The notes below the pieces were generated by a model. That model saw only the letters and a program-made list of their open reading frames with translations, ran no database searches and had not been told where the DNA came from. Below, piece by piece: positions 2,638-58,430 of a DNA stretch of 64,000 nucleotides. This stretch comes from an uncultured Bordetella sp. (lineage in GTDB: Bacteria; Pseudomonadota; Gammaproteobacteria; Burkholderiales; SG8-41), in contig CAZHJU010000009.1 in assembly GCA_964533495.1 (NCBI GenBank), positions 25,041 to 89,040 of the forward strand. The letters are read 5' to 3'. The position numbers were made by a program, and so were the translations under genes. The number at the start of each line of letters is the position of its first letter. Position 1 is the first letter of the stretch.

Positions 2638-4881
2638 TCAGTCAAAAATGTAAATCGGGCTGGACCATGCCAGATGGCCGTCCTCCAGCGTCGCGCACAC
2701 GTACAGCGCATTGTCCCGCCCGGAAACAAGATCCAGCCTTCTCTCGATGTTCACGCGGCAATGGGAATTCCCGTCAGGCAGGCGGAATATCCTGATCCGG
2801 CGTCCGATGCCGCCGGCCTCGAAAACCAGGTCTTCACGCCCGATATCGGCGATGTTCACGCGCGCCTTGACCAAGGCCGTATCGATCTCGAGCGTGCCTG
2901 CCTGCGGATCCGACAGCCAGGCATCGAATCCTCCGAAACCGCCGGTCGTCAGGGCCGACCAGCGCACCGTCGCAGGATCGGTCTGAACGACCTTCCTGTC
3001 GAGATTCCACATGTTCACGGGAACGATCCGCTCGAAGCCGTTGCCCCCCAGCGAGCAGCTCCCGTCCCAGACGGTCTGCCTGCCGCGCCCCCTGTATTCG
3101 GCACCCTCCCAGACGACGCGGATGCGGCGGCCGAGCCGGTCTGCGGCGTAGGGCCGGAAAGTCTCCAGCGTCTCGAGGCGGTTCCGGATCTCGACACGTT
3201 CTATGGGCACTGAAGACAGGATATCCACATCCAGCGACACCGAGCGTCCGGCATGGCGCAGGATGTCCCCCATCATCGCCTCGCGGACGGCGCTGCACGC
3301 CGCCGGCCCCAGATTCGGATCCTGTTCGTGCAGCATCGCGTCCGTGTCGAAACGGGCCCGGACATCCAGCAACAGGCGGCATCCCGTCGTCGCATAGTGA
3401 TGGCGCCGCCGCAGCGCGTCGAAAATGTCCGCCCGGGTCAGCGATCGCGCCAGGATGCAGGACAGGCCGCCGTAGGCCCCGAACAGCGACGCGCCGGGAT
3501 GGCTGGCGCCGTGCCGCCCCTTGTGCCCGTCGCTGTTCGCCAGGATGCCGACGCGGTAGCCCTGCTCGAACGCATCATGCAGCAGCCATTCGAAGGTGCC
3601 CCAGTCGGAATGCACCTCGACCGCGCGCTCGATCCTCGCGTCGTGCGCCATCGCGATGTCCGCGTAACGCCCGCCGATATGGGCGAACACGACGCAGTCC
3701 TCCCCCTTCAGTGCCTCGAAGAGGTCTTCCGCGCTGTTCGCATCGCTGCCGACATCCGACAGATCCTCCACCAGGGCATGGTGCGAACGGTGGATCTGCC
3801 GCCCCTCATGCATGAACATCACGTTGCGGTCGCCGCCGAGCCCGGTGTTCCCGGACCATTCGTAGCCCGGAAAAATGACGAACGAGCCATCCCGGTTATA
3901 CTCGCGGGTCAGTTCATTGAGCTGCTCCCAGAACGCGGTGGTGATCTGGAAATCGTTGCCCTGGTGGCTCATCGCGTCGAGGAACGCGCGATCGCGGCCG
4001 AATTCGATCAGGTCGCGCGCCGGATTGGTGCCGATCGTCTCCTCGGACTGCCCGTGCAGATCCGCCCAGTACGGGAGCAGCGGCGACGACTCCACGATGC
4101 GCAGCGGATTGGAAACGCAGGCACGGGCTCCGTTTCCGTCGAACACCTCGATGACCAGGTCCCCGGGGGACTCCACGGAAAGATTGTCGATGGCTGTCGA
4201 ATACTCTCCGGCATGCATCTCCACGGTCGCCGGCAATCCCTTCACGTCGCGGTTCGCCTTCAGGGCAAAAGTCCCGGAAACCCGGTAACTGGGATTCCCC
4301 CACTGGTCCTCCCCCTTGAAGCCCAGCCTGAAGGTTTCCCCGGCACGACGCATCGTCGGCAGCACCGCCTTGTAGGCCACGGGAGGCCCCGCAACCACCG
4401 CGATCTGCGGCTGCAGCGGAAGCTCGACATAGCTGTAGGTGGCCCAGGCATCGACCAGCACGCGGAATTCGAACGTCGGCTCGTGGAAAGTCTGCACGCG
4501 GATTCCGGGCGACCCCTGCCGCCGGTCGCCGAAACGCACGATGATCCGGTCGCCCTCACGGAGAAATCCGCGCACGACACGGACAAACAGCGTCTTGTCC
4601 CACGGCCTGATGTTCATTTTGCCGTCGTACTTCACTTCCAGCACTGCACCGTTGCTCGCCTCGACCGTCGTGTAATTCCAGCCGCCCGGATCCGTGAACT
4701 GCGGCCGCCCCATGTCCGAGGCGAAACGGTGCACGATCTTGATCGATCCGGTGTCGTCGATGCCGAAATAACCGGCGGTATACGTCAACGTGAACGACTG
4801 GAAACTTCCGGCCTCGAATTCGCCCTGCGGGTCGATCCGGGCGCTGCCCATGCGTTCGGCCAGGTACGTGGAATGCGGCAT
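2638..4881 (-). CDS. large PHP-like / DUF3604-type metal-dependent hydrolase (tentative)
   Basis: 747 aa ORF. His/Asp-rich motifs YWADLHGQSEE, PGYEWSGNTGLGGDRNV, VHSDWGTFEW and ANSDGHKG resemble PHP-superfamily metal sites. The family assignment is from memory only. Confidence 0.45.
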   Translation of the reverse strand: MPHSTYLAERMGSARIDPQGEFEAGSFQSFTLTYTAGYFGIDDTGSIKIVHRFASDMGRPQFTDPGGWNYTTVEASNGAVLEVKYDGKMNIRPWDKTLFVRVVRGFLREGDRIIVRFGDRRQGSPGIRVQTFHEPTFEFRVLVDAWATYSYVELPLQPQIAVVAGPPVAYKAVLPTMRRAGETFRLGFKGEDQWGNPSYRVSGTFALKANRDVKGLPATVEMHAGEYSTAIDNLSVESPGDLVIEVFDGNGARACVSNPLRIVESSPLLPYWADLHGQSEETIGTNPARDLIEFGRDRAFLDAMSHQGNDFQITTAFWEQLNELTREYNRDGSFVIFPGYEWSGNTGLGGDRNVMFMHEGRQIHRSHHALVEDLSDVGSDANSAEDLFEALKGEDCVVFAHIGGRYADIAMAHDARIERAVEVHSDWGTFEWLLHDAFEQGYRVGILANSDGHKGRHGASHPGASLFGAYGGLSCILARSLTRADIFDALRRRHHYATTGCRLLLDVRARFDTDAMLHEQDPNLGPAACSAVREAMMGDILRHAGRSVSLDVDILSSVPIERVEIRNRLETLETFRPYAADRLGRRIRVVWEGAEYRGRGRQTVWDGSCSLGGNGFERIVPVNMWNLDRKVVQTDPATVRWSALTTGGFGGFDAWLSDPQAGTLEIDTALVKARVNIADIGREDLVFEAGGIGRRIRIFRLPDGNSHCRVNIERRLDLVSGRDNALYVCATLEDGHLAWSSPIYIFD

Positions 4882-50756: not shown

Positions 50757-51835
50757 GCCGCGGCGCCGTGGCGCGCCAGCGCCCAAGCCACATGCTCGCG
50801 CACCAGCGCCGACGGATGGTCGGCGCGCGAGCGCAGCGCGGCCAGCACTTCCGGCGTGCTCCGCGCGTTGCCCAGCCCCACCGCGATGTTGCGCAGCCAG
50901 CGCTCGTGGCCGATGCGGTGGATCGCGCTGCCGGCAAGCCGCGACGCAAACGCCGCCTCGTCCCAGGCAAACAGTTCGGCCAGCGCGACATCGTCCAGCC
51001 CGTTGCGCACCGCGAAGTCATCTTCGGCACTGACCTGCGCGAAGCGGTTCCACGGGCAGACGAGCTGGCAGTCGTCGCAGCCGTAGATCCGGTTGCCGAT
51101 CAGCGGCCGGAATTCCTCGGGAATGCTGCCCTTCAGCTCGATGGTCAGGTAGGAAATGCAGCGCCGCGCGTCGAGCCGGTACGGCGCGACGATGGCCCGG
51201 GTCGGGCAGACGTCGATGCACCGGCTGCAGCTGCCGCAGTGTTCCGCCTGCGGCGCATCCACCGGCAGCGGCAGGTCGGTGTAGATCTCGCCGAGGAAAA
51301 AGGCCGAGCCGCCCTCGCGGTTGAGCAGCAGCGTGTGCTTGCCGCGCCACCCGAGCCCGGCCTTTTCCGCCAGCGCCACTTCCATCACCGGCGCGCTGTC
51401 GGTGAACACGCGGTAACGGTATTCGCCGACCGCCGTTTCGATGCGCGAGGCCAGCTTCTGCAGCCTGCCGCGCAACACCTTGTGATAGTCGCGGCCGGTC
51501 GCGTAGCGGGAAATGAAGGCGCGCGCATCGTCGCGGATCACCGCCCAGCTTTCGCGCGCCGACGGCGGCGTGTAATCGAGCCGCGCGACAATCACCCGCA
51601 GCGTGCCCGGCACCAGCTCGGCGGGACGGCTGCGCTTGACGCCGTGGCGTGCCATATAATCCATGTCGCCGTGCCAGCCGCGGGCCAGCCATTCGGCGAG
51701 CCGCGGTTCCGCATGCGACAGGTCGCAGTCGGCCACCGCGACCTGCCGGAACCCGAGCTCCGCGCCCCAGCGGTCCATCTCGCGCCGGAGCACCAGCCAA
51801 TCGACGTCACTGCCCTGAAATGCACTCTCTTGCAT
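50753..51835 (-). CDS. queG: epoxyqueuosine reductase
   Basis: 4Fe-4S motifs CGSCSRCIDVCPTRAI and CDDCQLVCPWNRF, plus HEAT-like C-terminal repeats. Start is the ATG at 51835 (MQESAFQ) or 51844. Confidence 0.85.
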   Translation of the reverse strand: MQESAFQGSDVDWLVLRREMDRWGAELGFRQVAVADCDLSHAEPRLAEWLARGWHGDMDYMARHGVKRSRPAELVPGTLRVIVARLDYTPPSARESWAVIRDDARAFISRYATGRDYHKVLRGRLQKLASRIETAVGEYRYRVFTDSAPVMEVALAEKAGLGWRGKHTLLLNREGGSAFFLGEIYTDLPLPVDAPQAEHCGSCSRCIDVCPTRAIVAPYRLDARRCISYLTIELKGSIPEEFRPLIGNRIYGCDDCQLVCPWNRFAQVSAEDDFAVRNGLDDVALAELFAWDEAAFASRLAGSAIHRIGHERWLRNIAVGLGNARSTPEVLAALRSRADHPSALVREHVAWALARHGAAA

Positions 51836-52300
51836 AGCCCGCATCTTAAACGCAGGCAGCATCTCGCCGCCGAAGACGACACGCTGGCGCTGGGTCGCGC
51901 GCTGGCGCCGCTGCTCGAGCCGGGCATGGTGCTGCATCTGCGCGGCGACCTCGGCGCCGGCAAGACCACGCTGGCGCGGGGCATCCTGCGCGGGCTGGGC
52001 CACGAAGGCCGCGTCAAAAGCCCGACCTATACCCTGGTTGAACCTTATCAATTTTCTAGGTTATACTTGTATCACTTTGATTTTTATCGGTTCCTTGATC
52101 CCGAGGAACTGGAGGCCAGCGGCTTCCGGGAATACTTCAATCCCGAATCCGTATGCCTGGTCGAGTGGCCGGAAAAAGTGCCGGACCTGCCTGCCGCCGA
52201 CCTGGAAATCAGCCTGCGTCCTGAAAAGCAGGGACGCACGATTGAGATCACGGCGCACACGGAGGCTGGCAGGCGTTGTCTCGACAAACTGACATACTGA
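51830..52300 (+). CDS. tsaE: tRNA t6A37 biosynthesis ATPase TsaE
   Basis: GDLGAGKTTLARG P-loop and SPTYTLVEPY...LYHFDFYRFLDPEELE match the TsaE/YjeE signature. There is no in-frame ATG upstream of the P-loop, so a TTG at 51830 is the best candidate start. It abuts the queG ATG on the other strand. Confidence 0.75.
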   Translation: MHSPHLKRRQHLAAEDDTLALGRALAPLLEPGMVLHLRGDLGAGKTTLARGILRGLGHEGRVKSPTYTLVEPYQFSRLYLYHFDFYRFLDPEELEASGFREYFNPESVCLVEWPEKVPDLPAADLEISLRPEKQGRTIEITAHTEAGRRCLDKLTY

Positions 52301-53640
52301 GACCCGTCATCCGCTGCGCGGCATATGCGCCGCATGCGCCCCGTTTTTTCCGCACGCTGCTGCAATTCCTCAAGGCCTGCATCGCCAGCCTGCTGATGGC
52401 CGCGCCCGCGTGGGCCGCCGAAACGCTGGTGACCTCGACCCGGGTCTGGCCGGCCCCGGACTACACCCGCGTCACCATCGAATCGCAACAGCCGGTCAAG
52501 CACACGCTGTTCAGCCTCGACAATCCCGACCGCCTGGTGCTCGACCTCGAGGACGTCGCGCTGGGCGCGACGCTGAACGACATCGCCGGCAAGATCAGCG
52601 CCGAGGATCCCTACATCAAGGGCGTACGCGTCGGCCGCTTCAAGCCGGGCACGGTGCGCCTGGTGTTCGACCTGAAGGCGAAAATCAAGCCGGAAGTGTT
52701 TGCACTGGCGCCGATCGGCGAGTACGGCCACCGGCTGGTGCTCGACGTCTATCCGCTGGAACCGCCGGACCCGCTGCTCGCCTTTCTCAGGAACCGCGAG
52801 CACCGTCACGCCGAGCCGCCCGCGGCGGCGACCGCACCGGAACCCCCGGCGCCCCCGGTCGCCAGGGTCGATCCGCCCGCCACCACCAAGCCTGCCCCGC
52901 GCGCGGCACGCCCGCCATCGGAACGGCTGATCACCATCGTCATCGATGCCGGCCACGGCGGCGAAGACCCGGGCGCCCGCGGCCGCCGCGGCACGCTGGA
53001 AAAGCACGTGACGCTGGCGATCGCGCAGAAACTGAAGAACCGCATCGACAGCGAGCCCAACATGCGCGCGGTGCTGACCCGCGACGGCGACTACTTCATT
53101 CCGCTGCACATGCGCGTGGCCAAGGCGCGGCGGGTGCGCGCCGACCTGTTCGTGTCGATCCATGCCGATGCCTTCGTCAAACCCTCGGCCAACGGCTCCT
53201 CGGTGTTTGCGCTGTCCGAGCGCGGCGCCACCTCCGCCGCGGCAAGCTGGCTGGCCAAGCGGGAAAACGACGCCGACCTGATCGGCGGCGTCAACCTCGG
53301 CATCCAGGACCCGTACCTGAAACAGACCCTGCTCGACCTGTCGCAAACCGCGTCGATCAACGACAGCCTGAAGCTCGGCAAGGCGGTGCTGCAGGAGATG
53401 GGCGGCATCAACCGCCTGCACAAGAACTACGTCGAACAGGCCGGCTTCGCAGTGCTGAAAGCGCCGGACATTCCCTCGATCCTGATCGAGACCGCCTTCA
53501 TCAGCAATCCCGACGAGGAAATGAAGCTGAAGAACCCGGCCTACCAGAACAGGATGGCGGACGCGATCTTCACCGGGATCAAGCGCTATTTCGCGCAGAA
53601 TCCGCCGCTGGCGCCGGCCCAGGTCGCCGCCACGCCCTGA
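52276..53640 (+). CDS. N-acetylmuramoyl-L-alanine amidase (AMIN domain + Amidase_3), AmiB/AmiC-like
   Basis: It has an AMIN-like segment (VRVWPAPDYTRVTIES...LVLDLEDV), a Pro-rich linker, and a catalytic domain (IVIDAGHGGEDPGA, SIHADA, ETAFISN). The start codon is uncertain (TTG at 52276). Confidence 0.8.
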   Translation: MSRQTDILRPVIRCAAYAPHAPRFFRTLLQFLKACIASLLMAAPAWAAETLVTSTRVWPAPDYTRVTIESQQPVKHTLFSLDNPDRLVLDLEDVALGATLNDIAGKISAEDPYIKGVRVGRFKPGTVRLVFDLKAKIKPEVFALAPIGEYGHRLVLDVYPLEPPDPLLAFLRNREHRHAEPPAAATAPEPPAPPVARVDPPATTKPAPRAARPPSERLITIVIDAGHGGEDPGARGRRGTLEKHVTLAIAQKLKNRIDSEPNMRAVLTRDGDYFIPLHMRVAKARRVRADLFVSIHADAFVKPSANGSSVFALSERGATSAAASWLAKRENDADLIGGVNLGIQDPYLKQTLLDLSQTASINDSLKLGKAVLQEMGGINRLHKNYVEQAGFAVLKAPDIPSILIETAFISNPDEEMKLKNPAYQNRMADAIFTGIKRYFAQNPPLAPAQVAATP

Positions 53641-53717
53641 AAACCGGCGACGACCCGGCATTGCACTAGAATAAGGCCCACAGATGCGCAACCATGCGCA
53701 CGGGCCGGAGGGGAAAC

Positions 53718-54506
53718 ATGGGGATTGTTCTGCGTGCCGCCACCGTGGCGGCGCTGGCATTGCTTGCGGCCTGCGCCGCGACGCCTGACGGCGGCGCACC
53801 GGACACGGTGACGCCGGCTCATGTCCGGAGTTTCTCCGGGCACCCCCCGGGCGAGGCGCTGCCGCAGGGCTGGCGGCCATGGACGCTGTCCCGCTTCAAG
53901 CGCCCCACCGAATACCGGCTGGTCGATGACCGGGGCCGCACCGTGGTGCATGCGCGCGCCGACGCCTCGGCCTCCGGGCTGGTGCATCCGCTGCGGCTCG
54001 ATCCCGCCCGATATCCGCTGCTGCAATGGCAGTGGAAGGTCGACGCACTGGTGGACAAGGCCGACAACGCGCAGAAACACCTGGAAGACGCGCCGGCGCG
54101 GCTGGTGGTGAGCTTCGACGGCGACATGGACAGGCTGCCGCTGCAGGACCGCATGTTTTTCGACAACGTGCGCCTGCTCACCGGTCAGCAGATGCCGTAC
54201 GCGACGCTGATGTACATCTGGGGCAACCGCGCGCCGCGCGAATCGCTGATCCACAACCGCCACACCTCGCGCGTACGCATGATCGTCGTCGACTCCGGCG
54301 CCGAGCGGCTCGGCGCATGGCAGCCGGTGACGCGCAACGTGCTCGAAGACTACCGCCGCGCCTTCGGCGAGGAACCGGGCCGCATCACCGCGGTGGGCAT
54401 CATGACCGACACCGACAACACCGGCGAGCAGGCGCATGCCTGGTACGGCGACATCAGCTTCGGCAGGGCACCGGAACCCCCGGTCGTTGCAACCAAAGAT
54501 CGGTAA
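53718..54506 (+). CDS. DUF3047-like protein (lipoprotein signal)
   Basis: The ATG at 53718 gives MGIVLRAATVAALALLAACA. The EYRLVDDRGRTVVHARADASASGLVHPLRLDPARYPLLQWQWKV pattern is as I recall for DUF3047. Confidence 0.55.
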   Translation: MGIVLRAATVAALALLAACAATPDGGAPDTVTPAHVRSFSGHPPGEALPQGWRPWTLSRFKRPTEYRLVDDRGRTVVHARADASASGLVHPLRLDPARYPLLQWQWKVDALVDKADNAQKHLEDAPARLVVSFDGDMDRLPLQDRMFFDNVRLLTGQQMPYATLMYIWGNRAPRESLIHNRHTSRVRMIVVDSGAERLGAWQPVTRNVLEDYRRAFGEEPGRITAVGIMTDTDNTGEQAHAWYGDISFGRAPEPPVVATKDR

Positions 54507-54586
54507 TGTTCGGAACTGCCAAAACAACAAAACAGACCATATCTTGGACAATTATCCCCACGACATCGGGTGCGGGGTAACAATAA

Positions 54587-54620
54587 GAAGAAAAAAGAAA
54601 AGGGCCTCCGAAGAGGCCCT
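54587..54620. terminator. bidirectional intrinsic terminator (ends the tracrRNA on -, and the DUF3047 gene on +)
   Basis: GAAGAAAAAAGAAAA-GGGCCTC-CGAA-GAGGCCC-TTTTGT. It forms a 7-bp GC stem and is U-rich on both strands. Confidence 0.75.
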
Positions 54621-54698
54621 TTTGTATCGGTGTCGTAGGGCCTAAGCCCACGACTTGTTGCCGACAGTCCCCACCATCGGAACACTTGATACGGCGAC
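54590..54698 (-). ncRNA. tracrRNA of a type II-C CRISPR-Cas9 system
   Basis: The minus strand reads GTATCAAGTGTTCCGATGGTGGGGACTGTCGGCAAC. This is complementary to repeat positions 1-33, with 24 contiguous matches and an internal bulge. It is followed by AAG, the hairpin GTCGTGGGCTTAGGCCCTACGAC, and the terminator GGGCCTCTTCGGAGGCCCTTTTCTTTTTT. The ends are approximate. Confidence 0.8.
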
Positions 54699-54699
54699 C

Positions 54700-54728
54700 A
54701 TCGTAGCCAAGTTACCGCGAGGAGGCAA
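54700..54728 (-). promoter_or_regulatory. candidate sigma70 promoter for the tracrRNA
   Basis: The minus strand has TTGCCT (54728..54723), a 17-nt spacer and TACGAT (54705..54700). This places the start about 7 nt downstream, at the beginning of the anti-repeat. It overlaps the cas9 RBS region on the other strand. Confidence 0.4.
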
Positions 54729-54732
54729 GACC

Positions 54733-56190
54733 ATGAATTACCGATTGGCTCTGGATATCGGCACAGCGTCTTGTGGGCTTATTGCCATCAAGCTTGATAA
54801 AAATCATGAACCCTCAGAAATAATTCACCATAGCCTGCATATTTTCTCGGAGCCGGTATTGCCACATGCAGCCGGCGAAACAGGGGAGCCCAAGAAAGCC
54901 GGCAGGCGCAAAGCACGTCTTGCCCGGCGCAACATAGACCGCCGCGCAAGACGTCTGCGACGCATCGCGATGCTCGCCAACCTCTTGGATCTTGATCACA
55001 AAACAATCCCCGCAGACAAAGGGCAGCATATCCACGAAGTTCGCGCATACGCCCCTCAAAAAAGAATTGAGCTGGATGATCTTGTACGGGTATTTTTAAA
55101 ACTTGCAAAACGACGAGGTTATGCCGGCGGATTCAGAACAAAAGCGGACAAACAAAAAGACGAAGACAGCGGCGTTGTCCAACCTGGTATTGAGAAATTG
55201 CAAGAAGCCATGAAAGCGGCTGGCTGCAAGACCGTTGGCCAATACCTCAGCCATCGTTTCAGCAATGGAGAGACACTAAAACTCAAAGAGGCTGGACTTT
55301 ATACTCATCGCGATATGCTCGTCGGGGAATTCGAAGCCATATGGACAGAACAAGAAAAACATTACCCCATACTGCGAGAATCACGCTCCGATCCCGTCGC
55401 AAAGTTCGCTGATGGCAAAGAAAAAACCCGCCCCCTTCGGGAGCAGTTTCGAGAAGCGATCTTTTATCAACGCCCACTGAAATCGATAGCACCAATGGTG
55501 GGAAATTGCGCCTTGGAAAAAAGTCTTCCGCGCGCACCGATGGCGCAACCAGCCATGCAGGCTTTCCGGATTGAAAAGCAGTTGGCTGATTTGCGCTGGG
55601 GCATGGGACGGTCGGCTCAGCCACTGACCTCCGAACAAAAATCCCTTATCCGAGACATGCTGAATGACCCGGACCAAGTCACGAAAGACGGGAAGCTGAC
55701 ATTCAAGAAGGTTTATACAGCACTAGAGAAAAGAGGCTTGATGCCGGCAACCCGCCGCTCACTTAACATGGAACGCTCGAGTCGAGAAGAACTTTATGGC
55801 AATCGCACGCTTCGCGCCATGCGTGATCTTGATGCCATAGAACAATGGCTCGCCTTTGATTTGACGACACAGATACGCATCATCAATTTCCTGGCTAACC
55901 TGGGTTCACCGGAACAGGTTGATTTACCTGACTGGCAAGACCGCTTCACCAAGCGCAAACGCGTCAAAAACCCCAAAACAGGTCGCTGGGAAGAAAAATA
56001 TGAAAAGCGGGATTTGGACAAAAACCTCGTCAGCTTCGTCAACAAACTGGTCGAAAACGGGAAATTCGGTAGGCTCGGCGATATGGGTTTTGAGTCAGGT
56101 CGCGCCAGTTATTCGATACGCGCACTGGATAAGCTGACAAGCAAGATGCTGGATACCAGTTGCGACGAGCACGCCGCAATCCAGGCCTGC
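54733..56190 (+). pseudogene. cas9: cas9 5' remnant (RuvC-I, bridge helix, REC-like region; about 486 codons) fused in frame to the CRISPR array
   Basis: GGAGG RBS. MNYRLALDIGTASCGLIAI is the RuvC-I D-I-G-T motif and KKAGRRKARLARRNIDRRARRLRR is the Arg-rich bridge helix. The ...GRASYSIRALDKLTSKMLDTSCDEHAAIQAC segment resembles the region just before RuvC-II in II-C Cas9. The frame then reads through repeat/spacer sequence to a stop at 56301. No HNH, RuvC-II/III or PI domain is present. Confidence 0.8.
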
Positions 56191-56825
56191 TATCAAGTGT
56201 TCCGATGGTGGGGTGTCGGAACAGTTCGATGTGCCTTACGTGAGGGCGGACAGAGTGTATCAAGTGTTCCGATGGTGGGGTGTCGGAACTGGCTATTGTG
56301 AAATTGCTGTATGGGACGAGAGTGTATCAAGTGTTCCGATGGTGGGGTGTCGGAACTCGGGGGCATGTGTTCTTATACCGCCTTGTGAGTGTATCAAGTG
56401 TTCCGATGGTGGGGTGTCGGAACGATCTGGTGGGCTTTGTGTTCAAAGGATTCGAGTGTATCAAGTGTTCCGATGGTGGGGTGTCGGAACCATCACAAAC
56501 GCCCATCTCGTCGCCATCAGGAGTGTATCAAGTGTTCCGATGGTGGGGTGTCGGAACATGCTCGTTCAAACGCTCGACTGGCGGGCGGAGTGTATCAAGT
56601 GTTCCGATGGTGGGGTGTCGGAACAAATGCGCGTGTCCCCGTTATCGAGGGTTTGAGTGTATCAAGTGTTCCGATGGTGGGGTGTCGGAACGCCCTGCCT
56701 GCGGCATCGGCGGCGCGGAACGAGTGTATCAAGTGTTCCGATGGTGGGGTGTCGGAACGGAATGCCTCTATAGCCCAGTGCGTGAATAGAGTGTATCAAG
56801 TGTTCCGATGGTGGGGTGTCGGAAC
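56191..56825 (-). CRISPR. CRISPR array, 10 repeats (37 nt) and 9 unique 30-nt spacers
   Basis: In the canonical orientation (minus strand) the repeat is GTTCCGACACCCCACCATCGGAACACTTGATACACTC. Full copies start (plus-strand coordinates) at 56253, 56320, 56387, 56454, 56521, 56588, 56655, 56722 and 56789, an exact 67-nt period, and all are identical. The copy at 56191..56222 lacks the last 5 nt (CACTC). The orientation is inferred from the GTT start, the tracrRNA strand and the repeat-end -10-like box. Confidence 0.95.
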
Positions 56826-56828
56826 GGG

Positions 56829-56870
56829 CTGCCTCAAAATCAGCGGATAAATCCGCTGATTTTGAGGCAG
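56829..56870. repeat. perfect 20-bp inverted repeat flanking the array
   Basis: CTGCCTCAAAATCAGCGGAT-AA-ATCCGCTGATTTTGAGGCAG. It begins 3 nt after the last repeat and has no adjacent T-tract. Confidence 0.9.
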
Positions 56871-57226
56871 CGCGCTACGCGCGCGTTTAGCAGAATGAAT
56901 ACCCCCCCCCCTCCCTATCTTTCGCACATCGCCCTACTCCACTAAAAAACATTGCGCTCTTGCAGGACAGTCGCAACGGCACGCTAAATGTCATCTTCGT
57001 TATTGGCGAAACCCAGCGACATCCAGATGCTGCCGTCCTTGATGCTGACACGATATTTTCCGCGCAAGCTCTCCATCAGCGCGCCTGCTTCCGGCACTGC
57101 GAAGCTGACGATCTGCACTCGCCTCGATGTTGCCAAGTCCGACCAACATGATGAAGCAGGTGCTGTCGCGCAGCACCCAGAAGTCAAGGAAATTCGGGTT
57201 ACCACCCTCGAAGCGATGCACGCGGC

Positions 57227-57763
57227 TCAGGCCGCAGCCCGCTCCTGCTCCATGGCCAGCACGTTCGCCGCGGCGGCGACCGCGGCGGCGATGCGGCCGA
57301 CGTCGCGCAACTGGGTGACGGTCATGCCGATGTCCTTCAGCAGCCGGTAGTGCGAACCGACGCAGAAATGGCATTTGCCCACGATGCTCGCCGCCAGCGC
57401 GAAGAGCTCGAAGCGCCGCTTGTCGACGCCGCCGTGCGTCGCGTAGGCGTTCATCCGCAGTTCCGCGCGCTGCGTCTTCAGATCCTCGTCGCCGGCCATC
57501 TCGACGTACGGATACCAGACGTTGTTCATGCCCATCAGCGCTGCCGCGGTCAGCGCGGCGGTCGCGTCGGCCTCGGCCAGCGCGCCGGAGCCGCGGATGG
57601 CGTTGACGATAGGGCCGCACTTCGCCGCATAGGCCGCGGCCAGCGCCGCGCCCAGCGCATCCGCCGGCTCGAGACTGGAGCGCGCGATCGTCGCGTCGAG
57701 GTTCAGGCGCACGTCCTTCGCGTAATCCGGAATGCGCGCCTTGATGTCGTTCAGAAATTCCAT
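57227..57763 (-). CDS. ahpD: alkyl hydroperoxide reductase AhpD (carboxymuconolactone decarboxylase family)
   Basis: 178 aa. MEFLNDIKARIPDYAKDVRLNL..., with the CxxC active site in GKCHFCVGSH. It lies downstream of ahpC. Confidence 0.9.
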   Translation of the reverse strand: MEFLNDIKARIPDYAKDVRLNLDATIARSSLEPADALGAALAAAYAAKCGPIVNAIRGSGALAEADATAALTAAALMGMNNVWYPYVEMAGDEDLKTQRAELRMNAYATHGGVDKRRFELFALAASIVGKCHFCVGSHYRLLKDIGMTVTQLRDVGRIAAAVAAAANVLAMEQERAAA

Positions 57764-57872
57764 GTCCGTTCCCCGTATTTCCTGTGTTGTTTCCTGTGTT
57801 ATTTCCCGCGTTGTTCCCTGCGTCGGGCGGCACCAGCCGCTGCCGGCACCGCCCCGCTACATCGCTTCGGTA

Positions 57873-58430
57873 TCAGGCCGCCTTCAGCACGTCGCCGCCG
57901 ACGGCACGGTTGCAGGGGCACAACTCGTCGGTCTGCAGGCCGTCGAGGATGCGCAGCACTTCCTGCGGATTGCGCCCGACGTTGAGGTTGTTCACCGACA
58001 CGTGCTGGATCACGTTGTCCGGATCGACGATGAAGGTCGCGCGCAGCGCGACGCCGGCCTCTTTCTCGCGCACGCCCAGCTGGTCGACCAGCGAGCCGGT
58101 GACGTCGGCGAAGGACCAGTGGTTCAGGCCCTTCAGGTCCTTGTGGTCGCGCCGCCAGCCGAGCTTGCAGAATTCGTTGTCGGTCGAGCCGCCGAGCAGC
58201 ACCGCGTCGCGGTCGGCGAAGTCCTGCGCCAGCTTCGCGAAACCGGTGATCTCGGTCGGGCAGACGAAGGTGAAGTCCTTGGGCCAGAAATAGATGATCT
58301 TCCATTTGCCGGGGAAGGACTTCTCGGTGACGGTCTCGAACGCCGATTCGCCTTTCTCCTCGTGCTGGTTGAAGCCGGGCTTGACGCCGGTGACGGTGAA
58401 GGCTTCGAGTCGGTCGCCTATGGTTTTCAT
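57873..58430 (-). CDS. ahpC: peroxiredoxin AhpC (2-Cys)
   Basis: ATG at 58430 (MKTIGDRLEAFTVTG...). Peroxidatic motif DFTFVCPTE and a resolving Cys in ELCPCN. The 267-aa track ORF has a spurious N-terminal extension. Confidence 0.9.
   Translation of the reverse strand: MKTIGDRLEAFTVTGVKPGFNQHEEKGESAFETVTEKSFPGKWKIIYFWPKDFTFVCPTEITGFAKLAQDFADRDAVLLGGSTDNEFCKLGWRRDHKDLKGLNHWSFADVTGSLVDQLGVREKEAGVALRATFIVDPDNVIQHVSVNNLNVGRNPQEVLRILDGLQTDELCPCNRAVGGDVLKAA

Follow-up and report, generated by a model that had tools for sequence, protein, structure and literature searches.

The window (the whole 64,000-nt stretch of DNA that was analysed) belongs to a genome assembly of 83 contigs (3.03 Mb, 65.8% G+C, 97% complete), and it carries a CRISPR-Cas locus in which a predicted tracrRNA gene on the minus strand diverges from a remnant of cas9 on the plus strand, with cas9 then leading straight into a CRISPR array. 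Upstream of the locus the gene order is queG-tsaE-amidase-DUF3047, which is also the order at L105, one of the intact relatives described below. The features of the locus and their positions are collected in Table 1. As an observation on the setting, one site, with queG-tsaE-amidase-DUF3047 on one side of the locus and the ahpD side on the other, is used in three lineages (window 51800-57900, L105 1-9698 and L027).

Table 1. Features identified at the CRISPR-Cas locus, in window coordinates.
Feature	Position	Strand	Basis or description
-35 element TTGCCT	54723..54728	-	Read from sequence; overlaps the cas9 RBS region on the plus strand
-10 element TACGAT	54700..54705	-	Read from sequence; 7 nt separate it from the G of GUAUC, where the anti-repeat starts
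Predicted tracrRNA, about 100 nt	54592..54692	-	Covariance model R1, 126.6 bits; fold z = -6.4 versus shuffles
Anti-repeat GUAUCAAGUGUUCCGAUGGUGGGGACUGUCGGCAAC, 36 nt	54657..54692	-	Pairs with the minus-strand repeat at 33 positions, including an uninterrupted run of 24
Nexus-like hairpin GUCGUGGGC-UUAG-GCCCUACGAC	54632..54654	-	9 pairs, one bulged U, preceded by AA
Single-stranded tail motif ACCGAUAC	54624..54631	-	Nearly invariant in the family alignment
Intrinsic terminator AAAAGGGCCUC-UUCG-GAGGCCCUUUU plus U-tract CUUUUUUCUU	54588..54623	-	Terminator scan
cas9 remnant, 487 codons (RuvC-I, bridge helix and REC lobe only)	54733..56194	+	TIGR01865 positions 1-394 of 1070; PF18470
Deletion junction, TATC microhomology	56191..56194		cas9 codon 487(+1) = repeat positions 7-10
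CRISPR array	56191..56826	-	10 repeats (the first without 6 nt), 9 unique 30-nt spacers

Three relatives with intact loci serve as the main reference. G031 is a same-genus betaproteobacterial MAG (JAKFUS010000007) with the only other locus in the genus, in which a tracrRNA gene diverges from cas9 (1090 aa), followed by cas1 (294 aa), cas2 (110 aa) and a five-repeat array, all in the same chromosomal setting. The order is queG-tsaE-amidase-DUF3047-cas9-cas1-cas2-array at L105 and cas9-cas1-cas2-array at L106. Because cas9, cas1 and cas2 lead directly into the array in all three, the ancestral locus is assigned to type II-C. The same RNA lies at the same place and in the same orientation beside the intact loci of G031, L105 and L106, and this RNA was not found in the other 38 genomes of the genus that were searched besides G031 and the window genome. 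We also observed that the CRISPR-Cas locus as such is carried by only two of 40 genomes of the genus, an occurrence that fits a single acquisition in a subclade or repeated loss.

It can be seen in Table 1 that the minus strand reads, in order, as a promoter, an anti-repeat, AA, a hairpin, ACCGAUAC and a terminator. We infer that the RNA starts at or near G54692 and ends in the U-tract; this start is 41 nt upstream of the cas9 ATG and divergent from it, so that the gene lies next to the cas9 locus. Positions 54669-54692 are complementary at 24 of 24 bases to each of the nine full repeats and at 23 of 23 to the truncated first repeat. The 24-mer pattern has no further site in the 3.03-Mb genome, and in 200 shuffles of the homologous locus the anti-repeat pattern was matched by chance in none. 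When the minus-strand repeat was co-folded with 54692->54657 (RNAcofold/duplexfold), a check that the first-pass annotation had proposed, the result was a stable duplex of 33 pairs at -59.1 kcal/mol, which is imperfect in that the tracr side carries a 2-nt bulge (AC) and a 1-nt bulge (C).

Most of the anatomy given in the first-pass annotation was recovered in this way. Its 36-nt minus-strand anti-repeat immediately upstream of cas9 lies at 54692->54657, the pairing with repeat positions 1-33 over 24 contiguous bases agrees with the co-fold, and what it had described as an internal bulge of extra G and GT is the plus-strand view of the C and AC bulges on the tracr side. The intrinsic terminator that it had noted was found by the terminator scan as a hairpin of 11 pairs with a UUCG loop at 54623->54598. 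Its AAG followed by a hairpin was right in the hairpin, which lies at 54654->54632, but wrong in the linker, which is AA, the G being the first base of the hairpin itself. The whole 101-nt RNA folds at -51.6 kcal/mol.

Two further observations concern the 3' part of the RNA. The motif ACCGAUAC repeats bases 4-10 of the repeat as these read in most related loci (CCGAUAC; here CCGACAC), and it has two possible pairing partners, the 5' GUAUC and, in the anti-repeat, UGUCGG/UAUCGG; both pairings are compatible, and the columns concerned are highly conserved (A6 columns 124-145). On the plus strand the terminator hairpin (54598-54630) runs on into TTTTGTAT, and the terminator may be used in both directions, also ending the convergent DUF3047 gene (53694-54506).

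The promoter that the first-pass annotation had proposed, TTGCCT and TACGAT with 17 nt between them, is present at the positions claimed and with that spacing, but it matches the consensus at only eight of 12 positions, for which reason it is missing from the list produced by a sigma-70 scan. Its -10 element is identical in G031, L105 and L106. Among 39 homologous loci, which are related so that the counts are not independent, TAnnnT was found 5-9 nt upstream of GTATC in 34 (against 4.3 in shuffles) and TTG 16-18 nt from this -10 in 30 (against 0.3 in shuffles). With a terminator at its end and the conserved TTG-17-TAnnnT-7 geometry at its start, the RNA has in silico the marks of a transcription unit of its own.

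In an Rfam scan of 53500-58000 at E <= 10 no family attained its gathering score, nor was there any match to the tracrRNA family of Rfam (RF02348); the tracrRNA family of the window is outside Rfam coverage. Because no Rfam family reached threshold, family membership rests on R1, a covariance model that was built here from eight close sequences and covers the hairpin and terminator only. A Cas9-homologue alignment scan of the genome collection gave 62 loci, and in almost all of those with at least 36% identity the 260 nt upstream of cas9 show the same layout on the opposite strand. A covariance-model search had also been suggested in the first-pass annotation, and with R1 it found 41 copies (the window and 40 other cas9 loci) at 37-128 bits. 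All 41 are on the opposite strand to cas9 and upstream of it, mostly within about 150 nt, and the neighbouring cas9 is intact in all of the other loci whose contig reaches the end of the gene. The 41 loci come from several proteobacterial orders and have differing upstream neighbours. Weak R1 matches on contigs C80 and C11 were considered as extra tracrRNA copies and rejected, as they are generic terminators.

Across the 41 loci, bases are paired in 96.7% of cells, compared with 61% in shuffles and 39-56% when partners are slid, although the alignment was fitted to R1, which favours the modelled structure and flatters these percentages. Compensatory (two-sided) changes were found at all 18 modelled pairs, including all seven in helices 1 and 2 and all 11 in the terminator, which is 98.8% paired on the same fitted alignment. 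The same covariation can be seen by eye in the raw upstream sequences (GGCUUAAAAAGCC, GCCCUUCGGGGC, GGGGAAGUUGAAAAACGACCCC and so on). In the 26 loci where repeat and anti-repeat are both readable, the anti-repeat pairs best or nearly best with the repeat of its own locus, and position 8 of the repeat (C/T) agrees with the anti-repeat base (G/A) in every one of them. Closer to the window, its tracrRNA is 97% identical to that of G031, with three differences in about 100 positions, whereas the flanks are 77% identical. One of these changes is in the hairpin loop (UUAG here, UUCG in G031), and the remaining two compensate each other within the terminator stem (C:G to U:A); the tracrRNAs of L105 and L106 add a few further compatible changes. 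The reading of the interval as a tracrRNA gene in the first-pass annotation is borne out by the same RNA at 40 other cas9 loci, by covarying hairpins, by repeat/anti-repeat co-evolution and by conserved promoter geometry. We conclude that, judged by sequence, the predicted tracrRNA is a member of a large, conserved and uncatalogued type II-C tracrRNA family.

The conserved block of every repeat in the array is 37 nt, with 30-nt spacers, a small correction to the first-pass annotation. All full repeats are identical to one another, the same repeat is found in G031, L105 and L106, and there is no further copy elsewhere in the assembly. Complementarity between repeat and anti-repeat is by itself symmetric between the strands; the minus strand is chosen by the U-tract, by the order of a 5' anti-repeat and a 3' hairpin, and by the repeat itself. 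In the minus-strand sense each full repeat has TGATACACT, an extended -10, as its last bases, and because of this extended -10 at the repeat 3' end the crRNA strand is taken to be the minus strand, the same as for the tracrRNA. The 3' ends of the repeats of relatives (TGATATAAT, TGATACAAT, TGATAAAAT, TGTTAGAAT and similar) likewise read TGnTAnnnT, which suggests that arrays throughout this Cas9 clade may be self-transcribing type II-C arrays. Repeat-embedded promoters, with crRNAs that start inside the spacer, are an established type II-C route in N. meningitidis and C. jejuni (PMC5965381).

Several observations on the array stand beside these results. TGnTAnnnT occurs across about 30 related arrays (L043-L087 range), including the perfect TGATATAAT. 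The repeat is partly palindromic (GUUCCGA-N10-UCGGAAC; 56790-56826 and every repeat), which is unusual for type II repeats, and as a consequence a free crRNA repeat and a free anti-repeat can each fold back; the anti-repeat was indeed seen to fold back on itself in RNA folding. Directly past the last repeat there is a near-perfect long hairpin at 56829-56870. G031 has a hairpin at the same place (L027 about 3915-3960) with another sequence, so that the structure is kept and the sequence is not; candidate roles are a terminator of the ahpD-side gene or an array leader element.

None of the spacers has a perfect match in its own genome. Spacer 8 (56692-56721) matches a coding region on contig C20 (about 3286-3315) at 25 of 30 positions, with four of the mismatches PAM-proximal, and this is probably either a chance match or a homologue of the true target. 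Self-targeting as the cause of the loss of cas9 was considered and rejected, the spacer 8 match being judged a chance one in a genome of 66% G+C. A search of phage and plasmid collections gave no significant protospacer, only chance-level matches to the G+C-rich spacer 8, and no spacer is held in common with G031, L044, L045, L079 or L105.

The remnant of cas9 matches PF18470, the Cas9 alpha-helical lobe family, and its homology stops before the RuvC-II motif, while the reading frame continues into the array to a stop at 56301. It is 81% (81.5%) identical to residues 1-488 of the G031 Cas9, and the closest full-length Cas9s, on the two metagenomic contigs L105 and L106, are 90% (P0007) and 89% identical to it. 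The full-length Cas9 has about 1090 aa, and among solved structures its nearest matches in sequence are PDB 8JA0, 6KC8 and 6JDQ (E = 6e-34), which we take to be Neisseria Cas9s.

When three intact cas9 genes were aligned with the window, all were found to have ...TG(C/T)TA(T/C)C in common, after which the window diverges into the repeat. The window follows the intact genes through ...CTGCTATC and then reads as repeat (AAGTGTTCCGATGG...), whereas the intact genes go on into the RuvC-II region. As the repeat itself reads GAGTGTATCAAG, the junction is a 4-nt microhomology, TATC. Nucleotide identity between the window and G031 is 76.7% over 53001-56177 and resumes in the array and the far flank. 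With G031 as the yardstick, the lost segment amounts to at least 3,073 bp and comprises Cas9 residues 488-1090, cas1, cas2, the short spacer between cas2 and the array, and six bases of repeat; the Cas9 domains lost with it are RuvC-II/III, HNH and WED/PI. A tblastn search with the G031 proteins, for which the G031 locus was the positive control, found no second cas9, Cas9 C-terminal half, cas1 or cas2, which for an assembly of 83 contigs and 97% completeness is an absence from the assembly.

A functional type II-C locus would be expected to encode a full-length Cas9 with RuvC-I/II/III and HNH, to have cas1 and cas2 with no csn2 or cas4, and to have an array of ~36-nt repeats and ~30-nt spacers with repeat-embedded promoter sequences. 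Here Cas9 is represented by residues 1-487 only and there is no Cas1 or Cas2 in the assembly, and an array of this kind, with predicted promoter sequences in its repeats, is present.

The remnant shows no sign of decay. None of 66 family-invariant residues (59 homologues) is violated, there is no stop or frameshift in the 487 codons, the RBS and start are kept, and the remnant has diverged from G031 no more than its intact sisters have (81.5% identity, against 80.7% and 81.1%). Because the remnant is without decay, the deletion looks recent, and we infer that it probably is, although an undecayed remnant of 487 codons fits continued selection as well as recency.

Taking these results together, we put at roughly 0.87 the probability that the interval holds an intact, bona fide type II-C tracrRNA gene in a locus that was disabled by one deletion running from cas9 to the repeat. 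Most probably the locus is a relic of an ordinary kind, and no new system is involved. The TTGCCT-17-TACGAT promoter would start the RNA at or next to G54692, and the first 36 nt of the tracrRNA would form a duplex with the 33 nt at the 5' end of each crRNA repeat. Transcription of the crRNAs would likewise run on the minus strand, probably from the extended -10 (TGATACACT) that closes every repeat on its 3' side, in the manner of the type II-C systems of Neisseria and Campylobacter, and the tail composed of AA, the hairpin, ACCGAUAC and the terminator would be the scaffold that Cas9 binds. Transcription, the start site and the binding of Cas9 are in this scheme predicted from the DNA. A single deletion (at least 3.07 kb, at TATC) took away Cas9 from residue 488 to its end, cas1 and cas2, and with them the end of the array nearest to cas2. 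Both the tracrRNA and the crRNAs may still be transcribed, without a nuclease partner, and for want of such a partner the locus could carry out neither interference nor adaptation. The first-pass annotation had called it puzzling that the tracrRNA module should be perfectly preserved beside a truncated cas9. The preservation is real, but there is little left to puzzle over, since a single microhomology-flanked deletion accounts for the truncation and the remnant of cas9 is itself undecayed; the tracrRNA would be intact because the deletion missed it and is too recent for decay.

A different explanation takes the truncation for an assembly artefact or for a minority allele; the population would then have an intact cas9-cas1-cas2, and the tracrRNA would be part of a working system. 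The assembly is fragmented, at 83 contigs, and CRISPR regions are often heterogeneous in populations. However, the joined sequences have only 4 nt (TATC) in common, and since a k-mer assembler (21 or more) would need junction-spanning reads to join sequences across a 4-nt overlap, an artefact appears unlikely. The junction moreover lies in mid-contig, in a contig of at least 89 kb, and no contig of the assembly holds the missing 3 kb. We regard an artefact or minority allele as improbable.

A potential explanation that would accept the deletion and give its product a function is a non-canonical role, in which the 487-residue fragment binds the dual RNA without cleavage, as a sponge or regulator, or in which the RNAs serve a Cas9 in trans. 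The half-Cas9 (487 aa) would then be under selection together with the tracrRNA and array as a nuclease-free RNA-binding module that sequesters or presents guides, or regulates; if so, it would be a natural 'REC-only' derivative of Cas9. The remnant ORF does keep its RBS, start, open frame and all 66 invariant residues, and no mutation is seen in the tracrRNA, its promoter or any of the ten repeats; in split-Cas9 work, too, the helical lobe is reportedly able to fold separately. The same picture, however, is given by a recent deletion without selection, and the remnant does not evolve more slowly than its intact sisters do. There is no second cas9 or Cas9 C-half in the assembly that could be supplied with guides, and the fragment is without the PAM-interacting and WED domains that are needed for the search for a DNA target. 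A search of genome contigs with the truncated Cas9 product as query gave no related locus and a look-up of the exact protein gave no record; with no other truncated instance found, and with the sole other locus in the genus intact, we consider a role of this kind very improbable, both for the fragment and for its RNAs.

That the RNA is no tracrRNA at all, and is instead a stray inverted repeat beside the DUF3047 terminator or a scaRNA-type regulator, is scarcely credible: TTTTGTAT follows the hairpin on the plus strand and so could end the DUF3047 gene, and complementarity is strand-symmetric, but the whole unit, from promoter spacing to terminator, is conserved beside cas9 in 41 loci, the long U-tract is on the minus strand, and a scaRNA is crRNA-like and pairs with the tracrRNA, whereas the window RNA is complementary to the repeat itself.

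For annotation, the preferred reading, that of a tracrRNA gene spared by a single deletion, means that the interval should be recorded as a probable tracrRNA gene and the locus as a degenerate type II-C system, predicted to be unable to interfere or adapt. It would be a clean natural example of Cas9 immunity switched off by one deletion that spares all of the RNA genes. The analysis also provides a description of the guide RNAs of an uncharacterised clade of ~1090-aa Cas9s, mostly from Beta- and Gammaproteobacteria. The description covers 41 predicted tracrRNAs, the repeats, the promoter geometry and the -10 boxes in the repeats, and it is a basis for the design of single-guide RNAs for the intact orthologues. 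A full-text search of the open literature gave no relevant paper with the repeat or anti-repeat core, and in the literature on truncated cas9 or orphan tracrRNA nothing pertinent was found.

Among catalogued RNAs, Atu_C8 (RF02502) gave a full-length match below threshold to the same interval and strand, scoring 28.7 bits where the gathering score is 50 (E = 0.009). Membership of this family was rejected, as the match is below the gathering score and comes mainly from the terminator.

Among known systems, the locus resembles the type II-C system of Neisseria meningitidis in several respects. The operon of the relatives consists of cas9-cas1-cas2 only, the predicted tracrRNA opens at its 5' end with an anti-repeat and goes on through an AA(G)-hairpin 'nexus' to a terminator, and the repeats end in an extended -10, TGnTAnnnT, by which the mechanism would be that described in PMC5965381. 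In N. meningitidis a tracrRNA acts with crRNAs whose promoters are embedded in the repeats (Zhang et al. 2013, reviewed in PMC5965381). The two differ in that the repeat and tracrRNA sequences of Neisseria are unrelated to those of the window family, which has only one hairpin between anti-repeat and terminator, followed by ACCGAUAC, and whose tracrRNA lies divergently upstream of cas9. Unlike Neisseria, the window genome is also without the nuclease half of Cas9, cas1 and cas2.

Campylobacter jejuni likewise has a minimal type II-C system, in which promoters lie within the repeats (PMC5965381). In this species cas genes are reported to be lost or degenerate from strain to strain (PMC3656092 and PMC4607530), and to that extent the degenerate loci of its natural populations are a parallel to the locus described here; its Cas9 belongs to another clade and its guide-RNA sequences are different. 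The locus is also like orphan and degenerate CRISPR loci more widely, in that an array and a non-coding RNA have outlived the effector and adaptation genes. It is unlike them in that the cause is visible as one junction with a 4-nt microhomology, and in that the tracrRNA, its promoter and the repeats are unmutated.
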